A stretch of 64,000 nt of DNA from Dictyostelium discoideum (lineage: Eukaryota). The stretch is taken from positions 3,968,001-4,032,000 of the forward strand of contig CM000150.2 of assembly GCA_000004695.1 (NCBI GenBank). The letters are read 5' to 3'. Below the pieces are notes generated by a model. It did no database searches, was not told the DNA's origin, and worked only from the letters and a program-made list of their open reading frames with translations. This document shows, one piece after another, positions 1 to 45,336 of this stretch (positions are counted from its first letter, which is position 1; the number at the start of each line of letters is the position of its first letter). The position numbers and the translations under genes were made by a program.

Positions 1-3000
1 CACTACCAAAAGTATATTCAATATCAATTTCACACAATGGAAACTCTTTTAATAATTGATTAAATTTCTCTAAAACATTATTTGATGAATGAAATGTGGT
101 TCCATTGTAATCTGCAAAACCGCTTGAAAAATCTAATATTCTAAATACCATTTTTTCATTTACAAATGGTACAAGTGATTGCTTAATAATTGTACCTACT
201 AAAATATCATTTTGTCCTTTTTCTTGTTGGTAAAGTGATTCGAATGTTTGTGGTGGTAAAATTAATGAATCCTTTGATTGAAGGTAGGTGGAATATAATT
301 CATTTGTTGGTGCTTCAATTTTTAATGAATCTTGAATTGGTGTTAATGAAGTACATGCTGCATTATCGATTTCAATTAATACAGTACCATCTTCTAACAT
401 TACTACAATAGATGCAAAGTAAGAATCACCCATTTTTGCATTTAATGATGAATAAACATATACGTTTGTATGTTGATCCCTTGCTGATGGTATATTTGAT
501 GAATATAGATTAAAACCTTCAATTCTATCGAAAACCAATTGACAATGTTCATCAACTAAACCAATCATACCATGTAAACAACAATCTAAAATTGAAGAGT
601 TGAAAAATGACTTTTGATCTGGTAAATGTTTTGGAAGTTCTAATGAAACCACTGATAATGAACAATTATCACCTAAATAACACATCGATACAGCTTGAAA
701 CATTCCACTATATGTTAAACCAGTTTTTAACTTTATGTGGTCATATAAATCTTCTTTTGTCAATTTGGTTAAATTGCAACGTTTTTCAATCAAATCTTTA
801 ATATTGTATTTTTGATTGAATATTTTTAAAGACTTTTCACCATTGTGTTTAAATAATTGAAAATTACCAAACGATGATTGAATCCATTCATTCTTTTTTT
901 GATCTTTAAAATGGAATAATACTTTATATTCTGTTTTTCCAGTTGGATAAATGTTTGTTTGTAAACAATGATTTACTGAATCATCTGTAAAAATAAATGG
1001 AGTACTAAATTCCAATGTACTAATAGTTATATCTTGTGATGGATAAATTTTTAATAAATTATCAATATAACCACAACCTGGGAAATAGAATTTCCCTTTT
1101 ACAACATGACCTTTTAGATATTGGAATGGTTTTCTCTTTATGTTTATAAATGTTTGATAAGATTTTACAAATGGTGAATCAGTAATTGAATTACCTAATA
1201 TATCAATTGGTGGACCTGTTAAATAATAATTCTCATAGAGTGAATTAATTTTCCAAAATTGTTTTTCATCCCATTGGTATAGTGGTAATTTATGAGTTGG
1301 TACTATTGATCTATTTATATTTTCAAATTGACATTTAAAGTTTATATTATACCCATTCTGACAATATAATTGAGAAATGGTTTGTCTTATCTCTTTAACA
1401 TCATTCTTTTTCTTGTGAAGTGGTGAATAAATTGAAATACTATCACCTTTTCCAAAGTAACTTGAATCTTTTGGTATCATTTGTTTTAAATAAAATTGTA
1501 AAGTTGGATGAGGAGCCAATTCAATAAAAACAATATCAGTTCCCAGTTGATTATTTTCTATATGTTTGTATAGATTTTCAATTGTTTGAGTAAAGTTCAC
1601 TGATTTTAAAATATTTTCATAAGTATATTTTGGTGAATATGGAGTAGTTTTATAATCAAATAAATTTGTTGTTACTGTAGAAAATATTGGTATTTCCGAT
1701 TCTTTGGATTTATAGTCCAATGAAAGGATATATTCTTTAATTGCTTTTTGACTTGATGTATGGAAAGATGATAATGAACCTAACATTGATGTAAATTCAC
1801 CTTTACTTTTTAATTCTTCTGAAATTTTATTTAGTTGATCCTCTTTTCCTCCAATTACAATTGATGTTGGTGAATTATAACATGAAATTTCTACATCAGG
1901 ATATCTTGATGAAAATTGTTCAATAAACTTTTCAGGTGAAATATTAATTGATAACATTCTACCACAACCTGTTGTTGTACTCTGGGCTATTGATCTATGA
2001 TAAATTAAATAACATTCAGTTTCTAAATCAATCATACCTGAACAATAAGCGGCAGTAACTTCACCAAGACTATGACCAACTATAAATGTTGGTTTAATAC
2101 CCCAGTGTTTATATAATTCGAATAGTGAAATTTGTACCATACAAATTGCAGGTTGTGCTAATGCTGGATTATGAATTGATTTCATATCATCTACCGGAAT
2201 GGATCTTAATTTCTCTAATATCGAGAAACCATAATATTTTGATAATTTATTATCCAACATATCCATAGTTTTTCTAAATATTGGTTCATTTTTATATAAT
2301 TCCAATGCCATTGTATTATATTGTGAACCTTGACCACAAAATACCATAATAATAATTGGATTCTTTGATTTTATTGAAATGTTTGATGATGTTGTTTTGA
2401 TTGTTTTAATATTATTATTAGTTGATATTAAATTATCTTTAAAATCATTCCAATTTGAACCTAAAATAACTGAACGTTGGTATAATGAATTTGATTTACT
2501 CATTATTTGTTCCTTTACAAAATCATTAAACTCCATAGTTTCTTGATTAAAATTTGAAATTAAAGATTGATATTGTTCTAATGATTTAGTTGAATTTGCT
2601 GAAAATGGAATTAAATATTCAATATTGTTCTGATGTTGTTGTTGTTTTAAATTTATTGTATTATTATTATCACTGCTACTATTATGATTATAATTGAAAT
2701 CTTTTAAAATAATACAAACGTTTGAACCTGTAACTCCAAAATTATTAACAGCCATGGTAATTTCTTTTTTTGGGAATGGAGTTGGTTCTACCACTACTTT
2801 TAAATTCCATTCATTAAATTTTATTAATGGATTTGGTGTTTTAAAATGTAAATTTGGTATAAAGTATCTATTTTTAAACATTAAACAGCATTTAACCAAT
2901 GATGCAATACCAGAAGATGCTTCACAATGACCAATCATTGATTTAAACGAACCTATTAATAATGGATTTTCTTTTGAATGATTGTCTTTGAAAATACTTG

Positions 3001-3369
3001 AAATACCTTCTACTTCAATTGGATCACCAACTGGAGTACCTGTACCATGTGCTTCAACATAGTCTACATCTTTTGCATTGATATTACCAGATGATAATGC
3101 CATTTTAATATTTTCAGCTTGTGATTGTGCTGATGGTGAATAGAAATTTGATTTATCACTATATCCATTACCATCAACATTTGAACTTGTACCTTTAATA
3201 ACACAATAAACTCTATCACCATCAATAATTGCTTGGTTTAAATCTTTTAATAATAATACCCCAATACATTCACTTTTTACATAACCATCTGCATTTGCAT
3301 CAAAACTTTTACATCTTCCGTCTTTACTTAACATATTCATATATGAAAATGATTTTGGGGTATTTGCAT
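1..3369 (-). CDS. Type I polyketide synthase, exon 2 (partial; runs off the window 5' edge). Encodes the rest of the KS domain, then an acyltransferase domain and downstream linker.
   Basis: Minus-strand frame is open across the whole region. AG acceptor at 3370-3371, phase 1, joins exon 1. KS sequence ...[43 protein letters not shown] active-site motif [14 protein letters not shown] at ~2040-2100 on the minus strand. Confidence 0.85.
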
Positions 3370-3374
3370 CTATT

Positions 3375-3407
<33 letters not shown>

Positions 3408-3462
3408 TTTATTTTAATTAATATATGTTCCATTATTTTTTTTTTTTTTTTTTTCTACTTAC

Positions 3463-4087
3463 CAAAAATTAAACTTGTACCACCAACAATTGACATTTTA
3501 GAGTTTCCTTCAATGATAGATTTACAACCTAAAACCACAGCATTTGATGATGACGAACAAGCTGTATCTATTGTTATTGATGGACCATGAAAATCAAAAA
3601 TGTTTGAGACACGATTTGATGATGAATGTGATGATGATGAAAATATGTTGGTTTGAATTGAATCGATAGTTCTATTTAAATCTCTATATTCGTGAGTTGT
3701 ATTCCCAATGAAAACAGAGGTATTTGAACCGCGTAAATTAATTGGATCAATCATTGCATCTTCAATGGCTTCCCATGTACATTTTAAAAGTAAACGTTGT
3801 TGTGGATCTATTGCAGTTGCCTCTGGTGGACTTATACCAAAGAATAAAGGATCGAATGATTTAACTTCATCCATTGGTAATAAACCACCATATCTATTAT
3901 TAATCTCGCCCAATTTGTTGAAATTATCACTCCATCTTTCATTAGTTTCAATAATACCATCATAACCATTAACTAATTCTTTCCAAAGTTCACTTGGATT
4001 ACCTAAACTCTTGCCACTACCACCACCTGGTAATCTAAACCCAATTCCAATAATCCCAATACCATTATTTTCTTCTTTTAAAATCAT
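3463..4087 (-). CDS. Type I polyketide synthase, exon 1 (N-terminus, start of ketosynthase domain).
   Basis: ORF-track minus [25 protein letters not shown]... with the DTACSSS KS active-site Cys. Ends at a GTAAGT donor (phase 1). Intron 3370-3462 is a poly-A/T tract. Confidence 0.85.
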
Positions 4088-4236
4088 AATTTATTTTTTA
4101 AATTAATAACTATAAATGATTTATTGGATAATATATGTTAATAATTATATAATTAATTAATTTTTTTTTTTTTTTTTTTTTCATTTTATATGAAAAAATA
4201 AAAATAAAAAATTAAAAATATTTTATATCACCAGAC

Positions 4237-4330
4237 AGACAGATAGGTAGGTAGGTAGGTAGGTAGGTAGGTAGGTAGGTAGGCAGACAGGTAGGTAGGT
4301 AGGTAGGCAGACAGGTAGGTAGGTAGGCAG
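4237..4330. repeat. (TAGG)n tetranucleotide microsatellite, ~20 units, interrupted twice by CAGACAGG.
   Basis: Direct reading: taggtaggtagg... between the PKS start and the TBC gene 3' end. Confidence 0.9.
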
Positions 4331-4661
4331 ACACATTCATTAAAATCTATTTAAATAAAACAATCTAAGATGTTTATAATATTAAACTGTAAAAAAAAAA
4401 AAGTTTGGAAAAAAAAAAAAATAAAAAATAAAAGAGAACAGATTATGGTGTTTAGGAGCATTCTTCGAAGGATAAAAAAAAAATAATAATAATAGAGAAC
4501 AGATTATTTAATAAACATTTTTTCTAATAAAAAAAAAAAAAATAAAAAGAGAACAGATAAAATTTTAAATCCAAAAAATCTCAAAAAAAAAACAAAAAAA
4601 AAAAAAAAAAAACAATTTCTCCCGAAATTAATTTTTAATTGTTGTTATTAACAAACAATCC

Positions 4662-4693
<32 letters not shown>

Positions 4694-4851
4694 TATATAT
4701 TTTATTGTTCTTTTTCTTTATTCTCTCTTTAATTGTTTCTACTTTATTTTTTTTTTTTATTTTTTTTTTTTTTTTAATTTTTTTTTTTTTTTTTGTTTTT
4801 TTTTTTTTTTTTTTCTTGGTAGGGAAATAAAAAAAAAAATTATTAAAAATA

Positions 4852-5532
4852 TTACTTTTTAATAATATTATTATTTAAATTTATATTATTACTTTTTAAA
4901 TGTGATTGAGCTTCTTCATATAATGATCTATAATAGAAAGCAGTAGAGAATAAACTTTCAATATCACGTTCTTCCCAATTTTGAGTTGGAGGTTTTTGAA
5001 GGAAAATCATAATGTCAGGGAAATCTCTTTGCTTCAATTCATCAGACCATAAAACCAAGAAAGCGGCACAAACATAAACATGAAAAACACTAAATCCCTC
5101 CTTTTCACTTAGATAAGTATCCCACATACGTATTACCAATGGAAAAGGTATCTCTCTCATGAGTAAACAATTCATCCAACGAAATGCAAACGTAATGAAT
5201 TGAGCGTCTTGATCGGCCAAATGGGCACATAAACTATTGTTAATCTTCTCTAGTAATCCTTTTAAACTTGCCAACATTCTTTGTATACCAGGTTGAGCAA
5301 ATGTATAATGATCTTGAATACCATCCAATAATTTCGTTAAACACCAATAACTATCTGCTTCAACCATTGCCAATATGGTCGAATCAATTTGATCCACTTG
5401 ACAATTGGCAACATCTTCAACATACTCTGATAAAAATACCCAAATAAATGGTGTTGCTAAATCATTAATACCTTGAACATATCCTGTTGATGGATGCCTA
5501 ATACCCCATAAATATAAAATTCTTTCTAAAAT
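4852..5532 (-). CDS. TBC-domain Rab GTPase-activating protein, exon 3 (C-terminal half of the TBC domain).
   Basis: Minus frame reads ILERILYLWGIRHPSTGYVQGINDLATPF...MDQIDSTILAMVEADSYWC..., i.e. the Rab-GAP YxQ-type motif region. Phase-0 acceptor at 5533-5534. Confidence 0.8.
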   Translation of the reverse strand: MLERILYLWGIRHPSTGYVQGINDLATPFIWVFLSEYVEDVANCQVDQIDSTILAMVEADSYWCLTKLLDGIQDHYTFAQPGIQRMLASLKGLLEKINNSLCAHLADQDAQFITFAFRWMNCLLMREIPFPLVIRMWDTYLSEKEGFSVFHVYVCAAFLVLWSDELKQRDFPDIMIFLQKPPTQNWEERDIESLFSTAFYYRSLYEEAQSHLKSNNINLNNNIIKK

Positions 5533-9056: not shown

Positions 9057-9367
9057 AATTTAAAATGATTTTATAGTAATGGACAGGTTTTTTTTTTTTA
9101 ATTTTTTTTAATTTTTTTTTTTTTTCAACTGTTTTATTTTATTTTTATTTTTAAAATGATTAAAAAGAACTTAAAAAATATAAATAAATGTGTATTTTTG
9201 AGTCCTCTATTTTTATACACTAAATTGAATTTTTAAAAATTAAAAATAAAAAAAAAAAAAAAAAAAAAAAAAATGAAATCCGATATAAATTAATATGGGG
9301 AAAATACAAAAAAACATAAAAAACTGAAAAATTATGTTTTTGGATTTTGTTTCTTTTAAAATGCACA

Positions 9368-10528: not shown

Positions 10529-11864
10529 AGAAATTACAAATGAAGAAAAAGAAAACTCAAGATTATTATTAAAGAGAGCACCAAGAAGACCAAAAGCAAT
10601 TATTTTAGTACCAACTAGAGAATTAGCAATACAAGTTATGAAAGTTGCTAAAAAGATTTCATTTGAAGTTAAATTTAGTTGTACAGCAATTTCAAGTGGC
10701 GGTGGTGATCTTAATAAGTATTTAAAAACTTTTAAGAATTTACCAATTGATATATTAATTTCAACACCAGGTTCATTAATTAAATTAATTGAACAAAAAA
10801 AGATATTCTTTAGTAAATTACGTCATTTAGTTATTGATGAAGCAGATTCAATGTTTACAATTGGTAAAGGTTTTGAACAAGATATCGATAAAATCGTTCA
10901 ACCATTTAAATATCGTTTACAAAATAAACAAGAGATTGGTTCAGAAAACGCAATCAATGCCACAATTTGTAGTGCAACCTTAACAGAACAACTCATGAAA
11001 CAAATTAATCAATCTTTTCCATCCATTGAAAAATTATCAACTCCAACAATTCATAAATCATTAAATACATTAGAACAACGTTTCTTTTATATTCCGCCAG
11101 GTTTAAATGGTGGTGATAAACATGGTGCATTAATGAAAGCAATTGAAAGTGTTGTTCTTAATAAAAATGAAAATAAAAATAAAAATAAAAATGAAAATGA
11201 AAATGAAAATAATGAAAATGAAAATGAAAATAATGAAAATGAAAATGAAAATGAAAATGAAAATGGAAATGAAAATGAAAATGAAAATGAAAATGAAAAT
11301 GAAAATGAAAATAAAAATGAAAATGAAAATCAAGAAGATAAAGTGGAAACTACAACTACTACTACAACAAAAACTACTACTGATGGTAATAAAATTGCTA
11401 AGCAACAAAAGAGAAAAACATTAATTTTCTGTAATAAACCAGATTCATGTAGATCAACAGAATACTTTTTAACAGAGAATGGTATAAATGCAACATCATT
11501 ACATGGTGAAATGCCACCACATAGAAGATCAGAAAATTGGAAATCATTTTTAAATGGTGATAAAGAATTTTTAGTTGCAACTGATATAGCTTCAAGAGGT
11601 ATTGATATAGGTTTAATTGATCATGTAATTTTATTTGATTTCCCTTCAAATCCAATCGATTATTTACACCGTATTGGTAGAACAGCTAGAGCCGGTAATA
11701 GAGGTTTAGTCACTTGTTTAATCACTCATAAAGATAGATATTTAGCTGATGAAATTAAAGAATCAATTAGAAAAGGTTATACTTTAGAAAATATTTCAAA
11801 TAATAATTATAATAATAAGAATAATAATAATAATAATAATAATAGAAAAAAGTCATTTAAATAA
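9474..11864 (+). CDS. DEAD-box ATP-dependent RNA helicase, single exon, 796 aa. Carries E-rich and (N-E)n low-complexity insertions and a basic N-terminus (likely organellar or nucleolar).
   Basis: Motif I SQTGTGKTLTYLLP, motif II VIDEAD, motif III CSATL, motif V ATDIASRGIDI, motif VI HRIGRTARAG. Confidence 0.9.
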
Positions 11865-11901: not shown

Positions 11902-12801
11902 TTAATTATTATATTTTGAAGCGATTCTTGCTAAATTAAAACCAAATTCATTAATTAAATTTGTTTTTTCTTGATTTGCTAAAACTGAAACTACAATGTT
12001 TTCTTGAGGTATCATTACTAATACAGTACTACCACCAACTGCATTACCAGTGTGATAGATTATATCGGTATTATTTTTTGAAGAAGGTTGTTTAAACCAA
12101 CCAGTGCAATAGTTCATGGTATTCTTTCCAGTTAATGGTGGATTTGGTTTAAAGAGATGATCAATTGTGGATTGCTTTAAAAGTCGACCACCTAAAACGG
12201 TTGAACCAAGTTTACAAAGATCTTCAGCAGTTGAGATGAAACCACCACCTGGCCATTTATAACTGGAATTTGTGAATTCAGCATTACATAATGAGACTCT
12301 AGCTTCGTCGTATCCATTTGCTGAGATCTCTTGTTGAGTTCTTGGTGTGAATTTTAGAGCATACTGTTTTGATCTACCTGGAATTAAAGAATCATGTTCA
12401 TCAGGTTGAGTATCAAACATACCGCATGGTCTGAAAACTGAATCTCTCATAAATGTTGTAAAACTTTTACCAGATGCTGATTCAATTACTAAACCTAATA
12501 AAGTGTAACCAAAAGTTGAATAATTAAAATAATGACCTGGTTTAGTTTTCTCTAAATCTTTTACCCATGGATTCTCTTTAAACATTTCTAAAGGATTTCT
12601 ATGACCCCATGGATTATATTCTTTATCAGTTTTAAATTTCTCTACACTATAAAATTCTGCTTTTCTATTTAACCCATAATGTCTAATACCTCCTAAATGT
12701 GATGCAACATGATTAATAGTTAAAACATCATCTGGAAAATTTGGACTATTCTTCCATTCTGGTACATGTTTTTGAATTGAATCTGAAAATTTAATTTTCC
12801 C
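11902..12801 (-). CDS. Serine beta-lactamase-like protein (LACTB/penicillin-binding-protein-like esterase), exon 2.
   Basis: C-terminal family signature ...YHTGNAVGGSTVLVMIPQENIVVSVLANQ. Acceptor AAAG|GGGAAAATT, phase 0, joins exon 1 giving ...GVLFEQ|GKIKFSDSIQKHVPEW... Confidence 0.8.
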   Translation of the reverse strand, partial: GKIKFSDSIQKHVPEWKNSPNFPDDVLTINHVASHLGGIRHYGLNRKAEFYSVEKFKTDKEYNPWGHRNPLEMFKENPWVKDLEKTKPGHYFNYSTFGYTLLGLVIESASGKSFTTFMRDSVFRPCGMFDTQPDEHDSLIPGRSKQYALKFTPRTQQEISANGYDEARVSLCNAEFTNSSYKWPGGGFISTAEDLCKLGSTVLGGRLLKQSTIDHLFKPNPPLTGKNTMNYCTGWFKQPSSKNNTDIIYHTGNAVGGSTVLVMIPQENIVVSVLANQEKTNLINEFGFNLARIASKYNN

Positions 12802-32647: not shown

Positions 32648-33178
32648 TTGATGCATATATATAAAAAAAAAGTAGACATAATTCTTAAAAATGAAAAAAT
32701 AAATTATGATCAATTTAATTTAATCCTTTTATCATTTTAATTTTAATAAAATTTTGTTCAACAAATATATATATATTTTTTTTTTTTTAACATTATTAAA
32801 AAAGTTTTTTTTTTATTTCTAAATAAAATCAAATACACTATAAATTATATTAATAAACTGTAAAGTTAAATTTATTATGAAAAGTAAAAAATACTGTATA
32901 TTTCAAATTCATTATTTTTATTATTATCTACTACATTGAAATTTTTTTTTTTTTTTAAAAAAAATAAAATTATATATGTATCTTTTAAATATAAATTAAT
33001 CATTACAATAAAATTTGTAAAAACCCCGCTTTTTTTTCTTTTTTTTCATTTCCAAATTTATTTAATTTTTAATTTTTTTTATATTTTATTTTATATTTTT
33101 TTTTAAACTTAATTTAAATTTGTTTTTATTGTTTTTCAGTTTATTATTATTAACAATGAAAAACCAATAAAAAAAAGA

Positions 33179-34462
<1,284 letters not shown>

Positions 34463-34802
34463 TAAAAAAACAAAAATAATAATTGATTATTACCAACACA
34501 TGTCAAAAGAATGAATCAAATAAAAAGATAATTTTTTTTTTTTTTTTTTTCTTATTTTTTTTTCATTTTTTTCTTAAATTTTTAATGCTTTTGTAATTTA
34601 ATTATTGTGAAAAATTAATACAATAAAAAAATGATTTAAAAAAAAAAAACCGGAGATTTTTTTATTTTTTTAGAGAATTTGATTCATTGAAAGGGTTTGT
34701 AGATCTAGATATTTTTTTTAAAATTTTTTTTATTTGGTTGGAACTTGTTTTTTTTTTTTAAATAATTTCACATCATAATACATTTAAATAAATATTAAAA
34801 AA

Positions 34803-37041
34803 ATGATTAATAAATCATTTTTATTGATATCAATTTTATTACTTTTAAATAATAGTAAAATTATAGATTCTACATCATCATGTCCAGCAGGTACAAATAA
34901 TATGGCAAATGGTGGTTGTCCAACTGTTATGTATCCTGATCTAAATTGTGAATGTGATAATGGACAATGTTTTGCATGTTTAGATATTGATGAATGTATA
35001 AGTGGTCATAATTGTGTAGCACCAGCATACTGTGTGAATGATTATGCAACATTTTCTTGTAAATGTCCACCAAATGGTTATACTCCAAATGGAACTGGTT
35101 GTGATGATATTAATGAATGTAGTTTAGGAAGTCATGATTGTGTAACACCTGCATACTGTGTGAATAAAATTGGTTCATTTACATGCGAGTGTCTAAATGG
35201 TTATACATTATCTTCAAATAGTAAATCATGTGATGATGTCGATGAATGTACTACTACTCCAACTATTTGTGGTTCTGCAACATGTATGAATACACAAGGA
35301 GGTTATAAATGTAATTGTCAAGAAGGTTATATCTATAGTCCGATAACAAGTAGTTGTTTAGATATTGACGAATGTACTAATCCATCCATTTGCGGTTCTG
35401 CAATTTGTAATAATTCACCTGGTAGTTTCTTTTGTCAATGTCTAAATGGGTATTCATATAATTCAGTATCAAAAGCATGCGATGATGTAAATGAATGTAT
35501 TGACACACCAACCGTTTGTGGTTCTGCAAAATGCACAAATATAGATGGTGGTTATATTTGTAATTGTGACATTGGTCTCAGTTATGATTCATCAACAAAG
35601 AGTTGTTTAGATTATAATGAGTGTAGTATGGGTACTCATAATTGTGTTTCACCTGCAACTTGTGTAAACACTCATGCTTCATTTACTTGTGAATGTATTA
35701 ATCAACCAGGATATACTCTTTCAAATAATGGAACAAATTGTATCGATATTGATGAATGTAGTTTAGATACTGATGATTGTATTTCACCTGCCTATTGTGT
35801 AAATGAGCCAGCTGGTTCATTTACATGTGTATGTAATGACGGTTATACTCTATCAGGTGATGCAAAAAGTTGTATTGACATTGATGAATGTAGTTCAAGT
35901 ACTCATGATTGTGTTTCACCTGCGACTTGCGTAAACAATGATGGTTCATTTTCTTGTATTTGCAAAGATGTACCAGGTTATTCTTTATCAAGTAATGGAA
36001 AAAGTTGTTCAAAAAATAATATTTCAATTTCATCAGTTATACCATCATTTACCAATGGAGGTGAAGCAAGTTTTATTGGTGTATTTGGAAATACATTTAA
36101 AGATTTATCATTGTTAATCGGTTCAAATAATTGTTCAATAATAGCCAACTCATCAAATTTAATAAAATGTACAGCCCCTCCAGGTCAAGGTGTCCATTCT
36201 GTTATATTAAATATAGATGGTGAACAATATATTGCAAATCAAATCTATCAATATCAAAATCAAATTCTTCAATGTCCAAATGATTGTTTATCAAAATTAA
36301 ATCAAGGTATATGTGATTCAAAAACAGGTCAATGTAAATGTAATACAGGTTTCAATTCATATGATTGTAGTGGTATTATAATTTTAGATGATACAAAGAG
36401 TAATGGTGGAATTAAATTTGATAATCATACCAATTCATTTACAACTGATGATAATAATGTTAAATTTTTGATTTATTATAAACTATTAAAAGAAGTTGGA
36501 TTTGATGGTCAGGTTTATAAAACTTACCCATTGAAAAAAGAATGGATTTTAAATAGTACTTTTGAAAATGAAATGATATTTGAACAAACCATTTCACATG
36601 ATTCAAATTGTAAAATTATTACTCACTTTCAAGAAATAAAAGATGAAAAAAAAGCATTTCAATTTGCAAATGAACAATTTTATTTGGAAAAAGGGTCAAT
36701 TAAAGTTACAATTAAAGTTACAAAATATGATTATATAAATAATTTAAATACCTTGGAATTGGAATTAATTTCATCAATTGAAGAACAAGATCAAAATAGA
36801 AATGATTGTAATAGTAAAGATATCGATATTGAAGATATTAATAGTCCAGCATCTTCAAAATTTAGTTTTATTAAAATTTCAAAAGATAATAAAATATTTT
36901 CTGGTAGATTTTTAAATAAATTATTATCAGATAATAGAGAAACCTTTTTTTCAACTGAAAATATTAAAGATTTGGAATCAAATTCAATTACAACTTTATT
37001 AAAATTACCACATTTTAATAATGAATGTATTATTGATCCTG
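34803..37041 (+). CDS. Type I membrane protein with ~9 tandem calcium-binding EGF-like domains, an IPT/TIG domain and a laminin-type EGF, exon 1 (extracellular part).
   Basis: Signal peptide MINKSFLLISILLLLNNSKI. Repeated D-[IV]-[DN]-EC-x(6-10)-C-x-N-x(4)-F-x-C-x-C consensus (cbEGF). IPT-like ...ISSVIPSFTNGGEASFIGVFGNTF...CSIIANSSNLIKCTAPPGQGVHSVILNIDGEQY. Donor G|GTATGT, phase 1. Confidence 0.85.
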
Positions 37042-37117
37042 GTATGTTTATTATTACTTAAACAAACATTATTTTATTATTATTTTAAATACTAATAAAA
37101 AAGTTTGTTAACTTTAG

Positions 37118-37323
37118 ATTTTTCTGTATTATTATCAACTGATTTCAAAGAAAATTGTAAAGAGGATAATAGAAAATGGGTAATACCGGTTTCAATTGTA
37201 ATTCCAGTTGTATTCGTAGCTTCTGCCATAATTTTTATTTCAATAATTTATAAAAAATCAACAACAGTTAAAATTGGTTTAAAAAAATTTAAATCAATAA
37301 AATTAAATTCAATGAAAGGTTAA
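37118..37323 (+). CDS. cbEGF/IPT membrane protein, exon 2 (TM helix and short cytoplasmic tail).
   Basis: ...WVIPVSIVIPVVFVASAIIFISIIYKKSTTVKIGLKKFK...*. Acceptor TTTAG|AT completes GAT. Confidence 0.75.
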
Positions 37324-37378
37324 GCACAATAAATAAAGTTAAAAAAAAAAAAAAAAAAATTGAAATTATTAATTTGTT

Positions 37379-40300
37379 TCTTTTTTTTTTATAAATCAAC
37401 CAATAATGATAAAATAATTTTCAAAACAATAGGTTAAAAATCATAAACACTAGAAACCATTGTAACTTATGTTGTTTTTGAATCAAAAACCATTAGAATA
37501 CTCATAAATACCATAAACAAATATATTAACATTAATATTATTAAAAATTTCTCATAATAAAAGAAATAATTATTTTTAAAAAACAAAGAATTTATTATTG
37601 TTTTGTAATTGTAGAAAATTTTACTATTTATTATAGAGTGGCTAGTTTGGAAGTACTGTGCTTGGTAAACAATAGTCTTTTATAATTTGATTTTTAAATA
37701 TTTTCAATTTGTTTGATGTATTCTGTTTTGTTACAAATTGAGAGTGTTTTGATAATGATAGTTTATAGTTTTTAACTTTGTTTATGCAATCCAAGTTTGC
37801 GGTACCATTTACTCTATTTATAGGTAGATATCCAAAAAATCTTTAAAGTTCGATTCCAGGTTTAAAGATTTTTTGTTTTTTTTTTGATATAAATAAACTA
37901 TTGTAGTATACAATTAGTATGTTATTTTTTATTTATTTATTTTAGGTTTTTTAGTTTTTGTGAATTTAAAATAGTATGTTATTTTAGATTAGGTAATTAA
38001 TAATTAATTGGTGGTGTAATTGTTGGAATTGGTTCATTTGTGTTTATGCTCCATTCTTTTTTAAATTTTTTGATGGTTTCGGACCATTGGGTTTCTTTTT
38101 GAGTTTTTGTGAGGTTGTTTTTAATTGAGTATTGGTTAAAGTTTGATAAAGTTCTTGAATATTCCAATCTTATTAGCTTGTGCCATTTTGATTTTAATAT
38201 ATCATAATCTAGTGTTGTGTTGTTTATTTGGTTGTTCCAATTATCAATTGATTGAGTTATATTGATGTCAAATAATGATTTGCATAACCATATCCATATT
38301 TGGTGAATAACTAATGAGATTATGTTCCAATATGCATGTGTTCTGACTAGATCAAGATTTGTGTTTATATAATTCCAGTTGAACCTGTATTTTTTATATT
38401 GTGCGTTTTCTGCAAAATGAAAATTAATATTGATAGTTGGATCTGGTTTAAATGCTTTGTTGTTTGTTTGTGGTTTATAAATGAGTGTGTATAATTTTGT
38501 TGTTTGGTTTTTTGTTAGTGACCAGTTTTTGTTTCCATTGCAATTTTTATAAATAAAATATTTTAATTTGTCGTGGTTTATGAAGTTGAATGTGTGCTGA
38601 CAATTGAAAAACAAATGACCATAGGGATCATTATTCATTTCATTGTTGCAAATGGGGCAAACTTTGTTGTGTAGATGATTAATCGGAAGACATCTAGCAT
38701 GGAATCTTTGCATTGTATCACGGCCTTTTGGATCTTTTAATTTTTGAATTTTGACAAATAGTTGGTCGTATGTGTATTTCCATAATAGTTGTATTGATTG
38801 TTGGTGCGAAGTAAGAAGTAGATCTGAATATTTCTTGCCAATATAGTCTTTTGATTTACATTGGTGATTGTTTAGTATTGTCGAGTAGATTTCTTTGAGT
38901 GTTGGTGGTAATGGAATATTATTTGTGTTTAATGTTTGAGAGGTTTGATTTTTTATTAATATTGGTTGTAGGATTTGAACTTTATCTTTTAGATATCCAA
39001 TTTGAGTTGCATAGTTTTCCCATTCTTTTTTGATTTTTATAAGGTATGGAGAAGAGATTGATTTGTTGATGATTTGATCCATCCAACTTATCATGTATAT
39101 TGAATTTTTTGCAGATTTATGCATTTGTAAAAATCTGTTGTATATCCAAATCTTTTGAGCAACTTGTCGTAATTGTATATTCCACATACCCCAACCACCT
39201 TCTTTTAATGGTTTTAATGATCTATCATAACACATCGAAGGTATTTTTGCACGTGAATGGATGGTTGATGTGTTGTTTTCAATGGAATTGGTATTGAGAG
39301 TTGGTGATTCAGAATTTGCGGGAGAATTCATAAACCATGAGATTAATTTATTAATTTGAATTTCTTCATCTTTTGTAAATTCTTCAAGGTATGATAAATA
39401 TGTTATTGGTGATAGTGAGTAGGTGTTTATGATGGTTGTTTTTGTTTTTAAAATGTTGTGCCACTAGTTTTCCATAGTACTAATGATTTATTCAACGTTT
39501 TCATTGTTTCTGGTAATTTCCTATGTAAACCTTTATGATTAAAGAAATAGCCAAGGACTCTTTCAGATTGATCTTTTTTGGTTATTGGTATTCTTTTTGA
39601 TTGTGAAATATTGTTTATTATGTGTTTATCAGTGATTTTGTGGGGTTGATTTCTATTATTGCACTTTTGTCAAAATTTAATGATGATGATGTTGAAGCGC
39701 AGAAATTATCGAAATGTTTGATTGATTGTTGTTGTTGTTCGTAGTTGATGTTGTATGTTGTAGAGTCGTCTGCAAATTGGGTAAATTTGATTTTAATTTG
39801 TGGATTGGGTGAAATTGGTAATCCAATTATTGAATTGTCTGCATTGTTCTTGCTTATATTTCAATTACAATTACAAATAAAGTGGCTGAGATTGGGTCAC
39901 CTTGTTTTACACCTCTTTTAATATCGAATTTTCTGGTCGTTTTACCATTAATTGAAATTTTTGCTTGTGAGTCAGATAATAGCTTGTGGATTAAATTTAT
40001 TAATTTTATTGGTATACCAATATGAATTAATGTTCTTTTAATACTATCGTGAGAGATAGAATCAAATGCTTTAAAGAAGTCAATAGTGTGATGATACCAG
40101 GGAGGTTTTTAGATTTGAGGTAGTTGATTAATTCATTGATGTTGATGTTGTCTATGATGAATCTGTGGGGTACGAAACCAGTTTGGTTGTTATTTATGAT
40201 GAAAGGAAGTATTCTTAGAAGACGTGCATTGATTACTTTTGAGAGGATCTTGTAATCAGTGTTTAGAAGTGTAATGGGACGACGATTTGATATGAGTAAG

Positions 40301-41345
40301 GGGTTGCCTTTCTTGTATATTGTGTGTATAAGACCTTCGGTGAATTCTGTTGTGATGTGGTGAGGATTTTCTAGTATATCGTTGAATAATGCAGTGAGAA
40401 TTGGTTTAACTTGGTTTAAATGATTAATGTAGAAAGCATTTGCAACGCCATCTGGACCGGGTGATTTGTTGGGGTTACAGGTTTTAATTGCAGCTTCAAC
40501 TTCATCTTGTATAAATGGTGAGTCTAAACCATTACAATATTCATTTTTTATGATGGGCCATGTGTTTAGCATGAGCTGGTGAGTAATTGGACAACATATT
40601 TGTAAGCTATATAGATTTGTGTAGAATTCAACAAATGCATTTTCAATTTGGTCGGATGTAATGATGTTACCATATTGGATTGATTCAATTTTTGCATCTT
40701 TTGATCTTTTGTTTAGTATTGCTGATAGATACTTGATAGGTATTTCTCCATTTATATGTTTTTTTAATATGTTTGTGTGGTTTTGATGTAATTTGTTTTT
40801 GTTACATATAATATTGTATTCGGCGATGCATTGTTCTTCAAGATGTTTGAATTTTGCTGCTTTTTCTAATAGTATTTGTTTTGCACGTTGAGTTTGTTTG
40901 TCTTTGTTATATTGATAGTTTTTTAGAGTTTTAATAATTTTTGATTTTACTTTTGACCAGTTTGTAAATTGATTGATTGATGTGTTATTGTGATTAGTTA
41001 TTAAATGATTGATAATATTGATTGCTTCATGGTCATTTGCAGTACCAGGTGATAATATCCATCTTTTCTTATGTTTATTTATTTGAAAAGGTGAAGAAAT
41101 TGTTGTTGATATTGGATTATGATCTGATAATGAAGATGGAATTTGGTGGACTTGTGTATATATATTTTCAGGGTCTATTCTATTGTATTGAGTATATATT
41201 CTATCTAATCTGTTGCCATGTGTATGAGTTGGAGTGTTTTTAAATTCACCTTGATCAATTAAATGGTGTTGGTATGTGTAGGATTGGATAATATCATCTA
41301 ATAGTGAATTGTCGTTGTGGATACAGTTGAAATCTCCTGCGATAA
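37379..41345 (-). mobile_element. 5'-truncated, frameshifted non-LTR (LINE-type) retrotransposon of the tRNA-gene-targeted TRE family. Most likely TRE3-type, since it lies downstream of a tRNA gene. ORF2 keeps the C-terminal part of the APE endonuclease, the reverse transcriptase and a C-terminal CCHC-like zinc knuckle. Ends are approximate.
   Basis: Minus-strand translation gives APE motifs ...ISAGDFNCIH...SDHNPI. RT motifs: KSPGPDGVANAFY (RT N-terminus), FVPHRFI, DFFKAFDSISHD (only after a frameshift), QFADDSTTY (YxDD box). Zinc knuckle CPICNNEMNNDPYGHLFFNCQH. Several frameshifts and stops between 39330 and 40030. The 3' end was put at the T-run near 37379-37392. The 5' end lies ~70 bp from the tRNA-Tyr 3' end. 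Confidence 0.8.
37997..40572 (-). pseudogene. Disrupted ORF2 (endonuclease, reverse transcriptase, Zn-knuckle) of the TRE-like retrotransposon.
   Basis: ORF-track fragments 37997..39331 and 40027..40572 (minus) are pieces of one pol-like ORF. They are separated by frameshifts and stops, and the FADD box falls in the gap. Confidence 0.75.
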
Positions 41346-41414
41346 TAGATACATGTTGGGATTGGTTTTGTTTCTGGAATCGAACATGCGTCTGTTGACA
41401 TCACGAAAGAAAAG

Positions 41415-41497
41415 TCCGGCTTGCCAGATTCGAACTAGCAACCGATTGATCACTTTCTATACTACAGTCAATCGCGCTACCATTGCGCCAAAGCCGG
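41415..41497 (-). tRNA. tRNA-Tyr (anticodon GUA) with an ~11 nt intron 3' of the anticodon.
   Basis: Minus-strand sequence CCGGCTT-TG-GCGC-AATGGTA-GCGC-G-ATTGA-CTGTAG[TATAGAAAGTG]A-TCAAT-CGGTT-GCTAG-TTCGAAT-CTGGC-AAGCCGG-A. It has a 7-bp acceptor stem, a 4-bp D stem, and a 5-bp anticodon stem formed across the intron. The T-loop is TTCGAAT and the discriminator is A. It is followed by a T-run terminator (TTTTCTTTCG). Confidence 0.85.
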
Positions 41498-41789
41498 ATG
41501 ATGAAAATAAAATTATTTTTACCAATTAAGGTTCGTTTTTTTTTCAATTTTTATTAAAATTGTCAGAGAATACCCTTAAACTGGCACCAAATAACTCAAT
41601 GTCGGTATCTACAGCAAATTCACCTAGATATCCATATGATTTTATGGAGCTGTATATTTAATAGGAATTGGATGATTGTTGATAAAAGAATAAAATTAAA
41701 TAAAAATACTTTTTTTTTTTTTGATGTAAATCAAAAACGAGTTTTTTAAATAGAAATAATTTATTGTTATAATTTAGAAAAAAAAAATT

Positions 41790-42233
41790 TTAAACTTTAC
41801 TTAAAGTAAGTTTATATTGGTAATTGTATGTACTACCCATGATAGCAAAACCACCACTATAAGATTTTACAATTTTGGAACTAGTTGGAATTTGATCTTT
41901 ACTGGTGCAATCTTCGCTATAGAAAACACCACTATAACCTTTAGTTATTTTATATTCAACATGGAGATTTTCACCAGAATTGTAAACACTAACTTTATTT
42001 GGATCACTGAAAAATGTTGATCCAATACCCTTTGAAAATGTATGATTATATGAACTAAAAACAATATTATTTTGTAATAATTGAGCCAACAAGAATATAC
42101 TTTGTGAACCATTATCCAAAGTTTGAGGAATTTCTGGTAATTTACATTTACTACCAAACATTTGAGCATTTGATACTAAACATAATGAAACTAAGAATAA
42201 TAAAAAAAAGGTAAAACTATTAGAAATTTTCAT
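41790..42233 (-). CDS. Small secreted protein, tandem-family copy 1 (147 aa). Signal peptide plus a ~125-aa domain with two conserved Cys.
   Basis: MKISNSFTFFLLFLVSLCLVSNAQ|MFGSKCKLPEIPQTLDNGSQS...EDCTSKDQIPTSS...; 70-80% identical to copy 2. Confidence 0.7.
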   Translation of the reverse strand: MKISNSFTFFLLFLVSLCLVSNAQMFGSKCKLPEIPQTLDNGSQSIFLLAQLLQNNIVFSSYNHTFSKGIGSTFFSDPNKVSVYNSGENLHVEYKITKGYSGVFYSEDCTSKDQIPTSSKIVKSYSGGFAIMGSTYNYQYKLTLSKV

Positions 42234-43449
42234 ATTTTTATTTTTATTTATTTAAAGAATTAAAGTTTAATATATAGAAAACAAATTAAAAAAAAAAAGG
42301 GTATAAATAGATTTTTTTTATCCTTTTTTTTTTTTAATTTTTAAAAATTAAATATTTCAATTTCAAAAACAACCCCAGAAAATTTAAGATAACTTAAATT
42401 TTTAAAAACTATTTCTAATTTAAAAAAATATTAAACAATTTTTTTAACTTAAAATTAAAAATTACCATCTTTGCAAATAAAAATAATTAAAGATATATTT
42501 ATAGTTATTTTTATTTTAAAAAATATTAAAGAAGTACGATTTTTATTGGATATTATTAAATTTAAAAACAGTTAAAATTTTAAATTTGAAAAATCATACT
42601 AAAAATTTTTTGAATTTTTCTTTTAATAGGAAAATGAAAAGGTTTTGGGGAATGTTTAAAAAATAAATTTTTATTTTTTTTATTTTTAAATTTTAACTTC
42701 TAAAAAAAAAAAACAAAAAAAAGAAATGAATAATAGAAATCTGATTAATGATAATCCTACATAATCAAATTATTCAAAACTGACCAACATAAACACCAAC
42801 GCCATCGAAAACATTAACAGATCCAATGAGAGTTTTAACCAATCAAAATGATGTAACTTTAGAATGTTTCGATCAAGAACATCAATCATAAATTTCGATA
42901 ATTGTATTAAATTTACCGCTCATTAAAACAAATTGGAGATAAGGTAATACTTCTTTAAAATCCAAATTGATGATCATTCGAACTATGGTGGATTCATTAA
43001 TGAGCAATCATCAATTCAAAAGCATCATCAACTGAAAACCACAATTCAAATATTATCAATATCACTATCATTAATTTGTATTTCAATACCAAATTATAAA
43101 CAATCAATAATCCTGATCCTTCAGTACTAATATATACTTATCTATCATTGGTTTCCATTTCTTTTGCTGCTAAATTTATTGCCAGACAGTTATTTTGGTG
43201 TCCCTCCAAATTACATAAACAGTTTTTAGGATAATATTTAACTCATTATTCTCTTTGACAATTCTATTAGCATCTTCAAATGATGAACTTTCTATTTCAT
43301 TTTATAATAAGACATTTAAAAATTATAATTCCATTTTGGGAAAAGGAGCCATTTTGTAAAACTTTAATAAAAATACATTTTTTTTATGTAAATCATAAAC
43401 AAGTTTTCTAAACAGAAATAATTTATTTTTTTTTTTATAAAAAATAGTT

Positions 43450-43893
43450 TTAAACTTTAGTTAAGATAAATTTATATTGGTAATAATATGTACTACCCAT
43501 GGTAACAGAGCCACCACTATAAATTACTACACTATAGGAATCAGATGGAATTTGACCTTTACTTGTGCAATCTTCGTTATAATAAACTCCACTATAACCG
43601 CTAACTATTTTATATTCAATATGGAAATTTTCACCAGAATTGTAAACACTAACTTTATTTGAATCACTGAAAAATGTTGATCCAGTACCTTTTGGAAATG
43701 TATGATTATATGAACTAATAACAACATTATTTTGCATTAATTGAGCCAACATGAATACACTGTGTGAACCATTATCCAAAGTTTGAGGGATTTCTGGTAA
43801 ATTACATTTTTTACCAGACATTTGAGCATTTGATACTGCACATAACGAAACAAAGAATAGTAAAAAAAAGGTAAAACTATTAGGAATTTTCAT
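43450..43893 (-). CDS. Small secreted protein, tandem-family copy 2 (147 aa).
   Basis: MKIPNSFTFFLLFFVSLCAVSNAQ|MSGKKCNLPEIPQTLDNGSHS...; intact ORF. Confidence 0.7.
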   Translation of the reverse strand: MKIPNSFTFFLLFFVSLCAVSNAQMSGKKCNLPEIPQTLDNGSHSVFMLAQLMQNNVVISSYNHTFPKGTGSTFFSDSNKVSVYNSGENFHIEYKIVSGYSGVYYNEDCTSKGQIPSDSYSVVIYSGGSVTMGSTYYYQYKFILTKV

Positions 43894-45336
43894 GTTTTTA
43901 TTTTTATTTATTTTAAAGAATTAAAGTTTATATAGAAAATAAATGAAAAATAAAAATGAGAAAAAATAAATGTTTAAAATAGATTTTTATTTTTCTTATC
44001 CCTTTTTTTTTTTTTTTTTATTTTTAATTTTTAAAAATTAAATATTTCAATTTCAAAACCTACCTCAGAAAATATTAAATTTCAGATAACTTTAATTTTT
44101 GAAAAACTAACTCAATTAAAAAAATAAGTTTAATGAAAAAAATAAAAACAATTCTATTTGACCCTAAAAATAAAAATTCCCATCTTAAGCAATATTGTTT
44201 TTTTTTTTATTTTTTTTTTATTTTTTTAAAATAAAAGAAGTATGATTTTTAATTGAATATTTATAAAACCGGATACAATTTTCAATTTGAAGTATTATTC
44301 TGAATACTTTTTTTTCTTTTAATACATTTTAAAATAATTATTTTAATTAAAAAAAAAATTAAAAAATAATAATAAAATAATAACAATTTTTTAATTTGTT
44401 AATTAATAAAATTATTGGTTGAAAATTAAAAAGTTTTGGGGGGTGTGAAAAATAAATTTTTTTTTTTTATTTTTTAAACCCCAAAACTTCTGGAAAAAAA
44501 AAAAAAAAAACAAAAAAGAATTGAATAATCCTATGGAATCAAATTATTCAAAACGGACATTAACACTAACACCACCAAATCAGATTAATGGTTATCCTAT
44601 GGAATCAAATTTTTCAAAAACATAAACAGACCAAATGACAGGTTTAACCAATCAAAATGATATTAATAATAGATATTAAATTTACAAACTGAAATGTAAA
44701 TATATATAAATTAATTGTTACATACATATACATACATACATACACACACATATATATTATATACTATCGCAATAATTAAATTAAAAAAGTTTGTTCTTTA
44801 CAAGTACACATTCAAAGTGATCCAAACTCAGCAAATACATCAACAACCAATAATATTATTATAAAATTAGAATGGTTCAATCAAGCAACCATTCAATTTG
44901 CTAATAGCTAGTATTAAATACTTCTCATTAAAACAATTTGGAGATAAATAGCAATAATCGATTCAAAACCATCATCAATTGAAAATCAATAATTAGATTC
45001 AAAAATGAACTCAATTCAAACATTATCAATATTGCAATGATTCATTGGTAATGTAATACCCAATAATAGATAGCTATCTATTAATACTATAAACAATCAA
45101 TAATCATGACTTTACAGTATTAATAGATAGCTATCTATTATTGGGTTCCATTTCCTTTGCTGCTGTTGGTGTCCCTCAAGTTTACATTCAAAAAGTTTTA
45201 AGGATATTATTTAACTCATTATTCTCTCTGACAATCTTCTAATGATGAACTTTCTTTTTCAATTTAAAATAAAGTATTAAATAATTATAAGGCCATTTTG
45301 GTAAAAGGAGAATAAAACATTGTAAAACTCTTATAT

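Follow-up and report, generated by a model that had tools for sequence, protein, structure and literature searches.

A defective, 5′-truncated TRE3-group retrotransposon, most likely TRE3-B, downstream of a tRNA-Tyr gene in Dictyostelium discoideum

The tRNA-Tyr gene and the element downstream of it

The window, by which we mean the whole 64,000-nt stretch of Dictyostelium discoideum DNA analyzed here (GenBank assembly GCA_000004695.1, contig CM000150.2, positions 3,968,001 to 4,032,000 of the forward strand), carries on its minus strand both a tRNA-Tyr(GUA) gene and the remains of a non-long-terminal-repeat (non-LTR) retrotransposon whose 5′ end faces the tRNA gene (Table 1). From its sequence we read this element, at window 41371..37876 (−), as a defective, 5′-truncated copy of the TRE3 group, most likely of the subfamily TRE3-B, with a probability of about 0.9.

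The Rfam model RF00005 matches the tRNA gene end to end at 41497..41415 (−) with 57.8 bits (E 6.9e-10) and places 14 nt in the anticodon loop where 3 are expected, which amounts to an 11-nt insert. The anticodon arm can be read directly from the sequence as ATTGA-CU-GUA-G-TATAGAAAGTG-A-TCAAT, in which TATAGAAAGTG is the 11-nt intron. In the whole window ARAGORN detects one tRNA, at 41414-41497 (−), and lists it with a four-base "anticodon" (gtag) because the intron is not modeled. The gene is conserved at two orthologous loci, L006 (GCA_054859355.1) and L007 (GCA_054859385.1), and the orthologue in L006 is identified by ARAGORN as tRNA-Tyr(gta). The tRNA-Tyr(GUA) gene with an 11-nt intron proposed in the initial annotation is upheld. 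An external B box (exB) lies 28 nt past the end of the tRNA gene and 4 nt ahead of the 5′ junction of the element, and the motif is also kept at the orthologous sites in L006 and L007.

We find homology to a full-length copy at another locus (L001 7646-11143; 97.9% DNA identity by BLASTN) only within window 41371-37872, and the body of the element corresponds to about nt 1799-5296 of that 5296-bp copy. At its 3′ side the element finishes with the terminus …TTTATTTATATC at 37886, which is identical in five other copies; in each of these TTTATTTATATC is followed by (A)n and then by flanks unrelated to one another. The tail is A10 here versus A14-A22 at the equivalent point of the other copies. 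The 5′ junction is ambiguous within 41371-41368, falling at 41368 if one mismatch stays unbridged, and the gap between the tRNA 3′ end and the element is 43-46 nt, shorter than the ~70 bp first given. The initial annotation had also described an element of ~4 kb within 37379-41497. Homology accounts only for 41371-37886 plus the A10 tail, that is, for a span of 37876-41371 and ~3.5 kb rather than 4.1 kb; the earlier 3′ end overshoots by ~490 bp, and 37379-37875 (~12% of the claimed span) is non-element sequence. An oligo(A) tail had been expected at the 37.38-kb end: a tail does exist, but at 37885-37876.

Translation of the minus strand in three frames yields the motifs IAGDFN, LSDHNPI, SPGPDG, GFVPHRF, FADD and CX2CX10HX4C, distributed over five frame segments. 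The APE endonuclease and reverse-transcriptase (RT) motifs and the CCHC-type zinc knuckle noticed initially are therefore all present, and the Pfam matches to RVT_1 and Exo_endo_phos agree. Only positions 138-225 of the 225 in the Exo_endo_phos profile are matched, the N-terminal half of the domain being absent. The Cys/His motif CPICNNEMNNDPYGHLFFNC corresponds to the zinc-finger (ZF) region described for open reading frame 2 (ORF2) of TRE elements, in which the domain order is APE-RT-ZF (PMC5006619). By tblastn the copy matches residues 149-1259 of the protein P0001, with ORF2 starting at residue 149. The first ~1.8 kb is missing, comprising the 5′ untranslated region (UTR), ORF1 and ORF2 codons 1-148, in accord with the 5′ truncation (no ORF1, partial endonuclease) recorded earlier.

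A global alignment with an intact copy gives 55 substitutions and seven indels in the body of the element, the indels including four that shift the frame and two in-frame deletions. Three frameshifting deletions break the RT domain (−1 near 40084, −4 near 39846 and −1 near 39646), and the fourth frameshifting indel, a +2 insertion near 39453, falls a little way downstream of it. With only the C-terminal APE segment and RVT_1 remaining and four indels that shift the frame, the copy is dead, a passive relic able neither to move nor to encode protein; the initial annotation had reached the same view from at least three frameshifts or stops.

Table 1. Features of the tRNA-Tyr locus and the downstream element, in window coordinates
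Feature	Position	Strand	Basis
tRNA-Tyr(GUA) gene, 11-nt intron after position 37	41415..41497	−	ARAGORN, Rfam, sequence, B-box scan
Internal B box of tRNA-Tyr, AGTTCGAATCT	41436-41426	−	B-box scan
TTTT RNA polymerase III (Pol III) terminator of tRNA-Tyr	41413-41410	−	Sequence
External B box (exB), TGTTCGATTCC	41376..41386	−	Motif scans
Body of 5′-truncated TRE3 element, most likely TRE3-B	37886..41371	−	BLASTN, global alignment, tblastn
APE endonuclease C-terminal remnant (IAGDFN, SDHNPI)	41119..41379	−	Pfam Exo_endo_phos (E 5.6e-6), translation
Reverse-transcriptase domain (SPGPDG, FVPHRF, FADD)	39640..40314, approximate	−	Pfam RVT_1 (E 5.1e-29)
ORF2 C-terminal Cys/His motif CPICNNEMNNDPYGHLFFNC (CX2CX10HX4C)	38600..38659	−	Translation
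Element 3′ UTR, 111 nt, from past the ORF2 stop codon (37997-37999) to the terminus TTTATTTATATC	37886..37996	−	ORF list
Oligo(A) tail, A10	37876..37885	−	Sequence
Perfect 15-bp inverted repeat with 13-nt loop, host flank	37833..37875	.	Self-inverted BLAST match, B-box scan

Family of the element

The best match of the stitched pseudo-protein is D. discoideum DDB_G0291958, at 97% identity, and the 90% cluster of this protein contains a 1275-aa GenBank entry named "pol" (AAD43057.1 / Q9Y1H5). Copies of the family are 97-98% identical. The full-length copy in L001 (5848-11143) measures 5296 bp; its ORF1 encodes 402 aa and its ORF2 1275 aa, with the two overlapping in the −1 frame. Family copies stand 68 nt after a tRNA-Lys gene in L001 and 71 nt after a tRNA-Thr gene in L004, in both cases oriented like the tRNA gene and a short way beyond an exB box, and those in L001 and L002 form tandem arrays, as described for TREs.

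TRE3 elements are found 40-150 bp downstream of a tRNA gene and share its transcriptional orientation, whereas TRE5 elements are found ~50 bp upstream and have the opposite orientation (PMC5911963). For the individual subfamilies, distances of 14-228 bp (TRE3-A) and 34-188 bp (TRE3-B) downstream have been tabulated (PMC5006619, Table 1). The window element lies downstream of its tRNA gene and in the same orientation, and it agrees with TRE3 in location, orientation and non-LTR structure (ORF1 plus ORF2, short UTRs, oligo(A) tail), its location and orientation not being those of TRE5; ORF1 is found in the full-length copy in L001 and is absent here through the 5′ truncation. The TRE3-type reading of the initial annotation is borne out by this geometry, together with the 97.9% identity to full-length D. 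discoideum elements and the figure of just 32% for a TRE5-type family. That family (P0030) is represented 48 bp upstream of a tRNA-Thr gene in L008, in the opposite orientation, and so matches the TRE5 geometry. A sister family, P0010, with 40% amino acid identity in ORF2, is represented by copies measuring 5233 bp (L008) and 5228 bp (L009). The L009 copy is flanked by a perfect 15-bp target-site duplication (TSD), and a tRNA-Thr gene of the same orientation ends 67 nt ahead of it; by length and geometry this family fits TRE3-A. Pairwise, the ORF2 of the window element is 40% identical to that of this presumed TRE3-A family and 29-35% identical to those of other D. discoideum families.

These relationships can be set against the named elements of Dictyostelium. 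Beside TRE3-B, with its 5279-bp consensus, full-length relatives of the window element are 5296 bp long; they come from the same host species and have two ORFs, an APE-RT-Cys/His ORF2 and an oligo(A) tail. The window copy itself differs from TRE3-B in its ~1.8-kb 5′ truncation and four frameshifts. With TRE3-A (Tdd-3) the element shares targeting geometry, domain order and an A-rich 5′ start (AAAAAAACCG…), but ORF2 identity is ~40% and TRE3-A ends in …CCAATATT instead of …TTTATTTATATC. TRE5-A (DRE) is likewise an L1-like TRE with an APE-RT-ZF ORF2 and tRNA-gene targeting; it differs in its position ~50 bp upstream, its opposite orientation and its A/B/C modules, and the family with TRE5 geometry, P0030, is ~32% identical. 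Skipper-2 (DGLT-P) also inserts downstream of Dictyostelium tRNA genes but is a Ty3/gypsy LTR element with an integrase and a chromodomain; a Pfam scan gave no integrase or chromodomain in the window element, and no LTRs are present.

Orthologous empty sites and the 3′ flank

Over 21 kb the window is 99.9% identical to the D. discoideum assembly GCA_054883475.1 (L005), the dead copy included. By contrast, L006 and L007, both from assemblies labeled D. discoideum, are 77-94% identical to window 33000-45000, with many indels, a divergence far beyond ordinary strain variation that suggests either cryptic species or mislabeling. The order of genes in these two loci is orthologous (147-aa gene, tRNA-Tyr, EGF-repeat gene). 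They align with the window across the tRNA gene and the exB box as far as 41376/41374 and again from 37455/37357, with the element absent between. Non-LTR elements do not excise, and we therefore take the two loci as ancestral empty sites. Since they retain tRNA-Tyr and exB without an element, the insertion is specific to the lineage of the window, and the copy serves as a presence/absence marker between D. discoideum lineages.

The segment 37379-37875 is host intergenic DNA between the element and a convergent gene with epidermal growth factor (EGF) repeats, and parts of it, window 37392-37455 (93.8%) and 37587-37613 (92.6%), align with the element-free orthologous loci. Directly after the A10 tail begins a perfect palindrome, the arms of which (37875-37861 and 37847-37833) read CAAAAAATCTTTAAA and TTTAAAGATTTTTTG and the loop of which holds, on the plus strand, the inverted B-box-like motif GTTCGATTCCAGG. 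A second, degenerate plus-strand tRNA beside this inverted B box was considered and rejected, as neither ARAGORN nor Rfam reports one. The palindrome and ~260 adjacent bp (37871-37614) lack a counterpart in L006 and L007, and they recur in none of the sequences compared.

The only TSD candidate is an A-rich 8-mer, AAACAAAA, at 41373-41366 and 37878-37871, which overlaps the edge of the palindrome; a search for a duplication, as initially proposed, thus returns a candidate, though one that may be due to chance. Other copies have clear TSDs, 10 bp long in L003 and 15 bp long around the TRE3-A copy of L009.

Insertion, truncation and alternative readings

TRE3 has been proposed to target sites downstream of an internal or external B box (PMC5911963), and the position of the exB box next to the element agrees with this proposal; by motif scan, exB boxes also occur 9-33 nt ahead of the TRE3 copies in L001, L004 and L009. 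We infer target-primed reverse transcription, TFIIIC targeting and truncation at insertion from established knowledge of non-LTR and TRE elements. A full-length TRE3 RNA with its ORF1 and ORF2 proteins would have been brought to the Pol III transcription complex of the tRNA-Tyr gene, where TFIIIC on the B box or the external B box presumably served as the docking site. The APE endonuclease may then have introduced a nick a few nucleotides past exB, with reverse transcription primed on the oligo(A) tail and a stop or template switch ~1.8 kb short of the 5′ end of the RNA. A copy made in this way would have no 5′ UTR/promoter, no ORF1 and no N-terminal endonuclease half. The four frameshifts were gained afterward.

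Within the TRE3 group, the published consensus lengths are 5229 bp (TRE3-A), 5279 bp (TRE3-B) and 4734 bp (TRE3-C), with only a partial consensus and no full-length copies for TRE3-D (PMC5006619, Table 1). We consider TRE3-B the probable subfamily, by elimination and by length, because the family of TRE3-A length is a different sequence, TRE3-C is too short, and 5296 bp is near 5279 bp. That the element belongs instead to TRE3-A, -C or -D is unlikely. In favor of such a reading, the homologues of the element are named just "hypothetical protein" or "pol", and the measured full length exceeds the published TRE3-B consensus by 17 bp (PMC5006619). Yet the other family with TRE3 geometry, at 5228/5233 bp, sits at the 5229 bp of TRE3-A with an ORF2 only 40% identical to that of the window element; TRE3-C falls far short of 5296 bp; and the lack of full-length TRE3-D copies contrasts with the intact 5.3-kb copies in the family of the window element. 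Cluster sizes of 79 versus 13 + 29 members are in line with the published order of copy number, A above B, TRE3-B being listed with 43 copies in D. discoideum (PMC5006619, Table 1). A further candidate for TRE3-C, P0014, was rejected, as its locus, L009, is the 5228-bp TRE3-A-type element. Several points weigh against our assignment of the window element to TRE3-B and against parts of the account given above. The subfamily call draws on a length 17 bp off, on relative cluster sizes and on the GenBank accession of the "pol" entry. For one family copy, in L003, neither ARAGORN nor Rfam detects a tRNA gene in the 2 kb upstream. The TSD is unclean, and AAACAAAA may have arisen by chance. At the 3′ flank, the ~260 extra bp and the palindrome set the locus apart from the element-free orthologues, and the pre-insertion site is therefore not exactly reconstructible. 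Finally, TFIIIC targeting has been studied experimentally for TRE5-A only (PMC5006619).

The extra DNA beside the tail bears on two other readings, of which the one that extends the element to ~37380, through a longer 3′ UTR ("C-module") or 3′ transduction, is extremely improbable. An A10 run at 37391-37382 and the unmatched ~260 bp would suit it, but the five other copies all finish at TTTATTTATATC + (A)n with unrelated flanks, and 37392-37455 and 37587-37613 align with loci that have no element and are hence local DNA. Nor is the ~260 bp a 3′ transduction, because its distal end has no A run. The modular A/B/C structure has been described for TRE5-A only (PMC5006619, PMC5911963). The initial annotation's proposal that a 3′ UTR/C-module at 37.4-38.0 kb may retain promoter activity accordingly loses its basis for 37.4-37.87 kb, a stretch that is non-element. 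It is also very doubtful that the facing B-box motifs, as a double TFIIIC site, mark a special or preferred landing pad for TRE3, or that the palindrome and the ~260 bp were made during integration. At the 5′ side, a full-length insertion that later lost its first 1.8 kb is improbable as well. Some family copies (L001b, L003 and L004) do show internal deletions, and the AAACA flank abutting the 5′ junction is unlike the orthologous empty sites. The host flank, however, is intact and collinear with the orthologues up to 41376/41374, exB box included, and one end of a deletion would have to fall only a few nucleotides from the original 5′ junction. Truncation at the 5′ end is the usual outcome for non-LTR elements, another 5′-truncated copy is present in L002, and an A-rich overlap of 3-4 nt where the element meets the flank is in keeping with 5′ joining mediated by microhomology.

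The TRE3 class and its preference for sites downstream of tRNA genes are already known, having been described earlier (PMC5006619, PMC5911963), and a TRE is present at 61% of the tRNA genes of D. discoideum. The use of the present result is mainly for annotation, in which 37876-41371 replaces 37379-41497.

Neighboring genes and other copies

Elsewhere in the window, a tblastn search that took ten RT/pol proteins of non-LTR elements as queries, including seven D. discoideum proteins, found no other non-LTR RT fragments. The initial annotation had placed the element close to a boundary of a KS-type element; none was found, and KS-like sequence occurs only 34 kb off, at an ORF at 3455-4087 (−) whose ketosynthase-like N-terminus (GIGFRLPGG...DTACSSS) makes it probably a polyketide synthase exon. 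The term "KS-type" may have meant this ketosynthase-like ORF.

The gene that converges on the element is a two-exon gene of 814 aa at 34803-37323 (+), with calcium-binding EGF repeats and a match to ComC_SSD (PF22933). Its intron spans 37042-37117, exon 2 encodes a C-terminal hydrophobic stretch predicted to be transmembrane-like, and its stop codon at 37323 is ~550 bp from the TRE3 tail. Two tandem paralogous ORFs of 147 aa, at 41790-42233 and ~43450-43893 (−), share 83.6% DNA identity and have signal-peptide-like N-termini. The best database matches of this family, which evolves fast, are at 76-85% and include AX4 DDB_G0270004 and DDB_G0270144, two chromosome 1 paralogues that make this chromosome the probable location of the locus. 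In GCA_054883475.1, a gene model of 1182 aa covers window 37997-42233 (L005 14819-19055, minus strand). It joins the dead ORF2 pieces, tRNA-Tyr and a 147-aa ORF, is a chimeric annotation artifact and should be discarded.

Among the other copies of the family, that at L003 2055-8441 carries its 10-bp TSD, TCATCATTTC, lies directly against a gene for a polyketide synthase and is split by ~1.1 kb of unrelated DNA. The copy in L004 is cut at its 3′ end (~9066-9110), where G-rich (GGGGACA)n stands in place of the terminus and A tail. L008 contains an inverted pair of tRNA-Thr(AGU) genes (11443-11556 and 11953-12066), ~400 bp apart and with flanks 93% identical; one of them has the TRE5-type fragment 48 bp upstream, and two tandem TRE3-A copies lie ~2 kb away.

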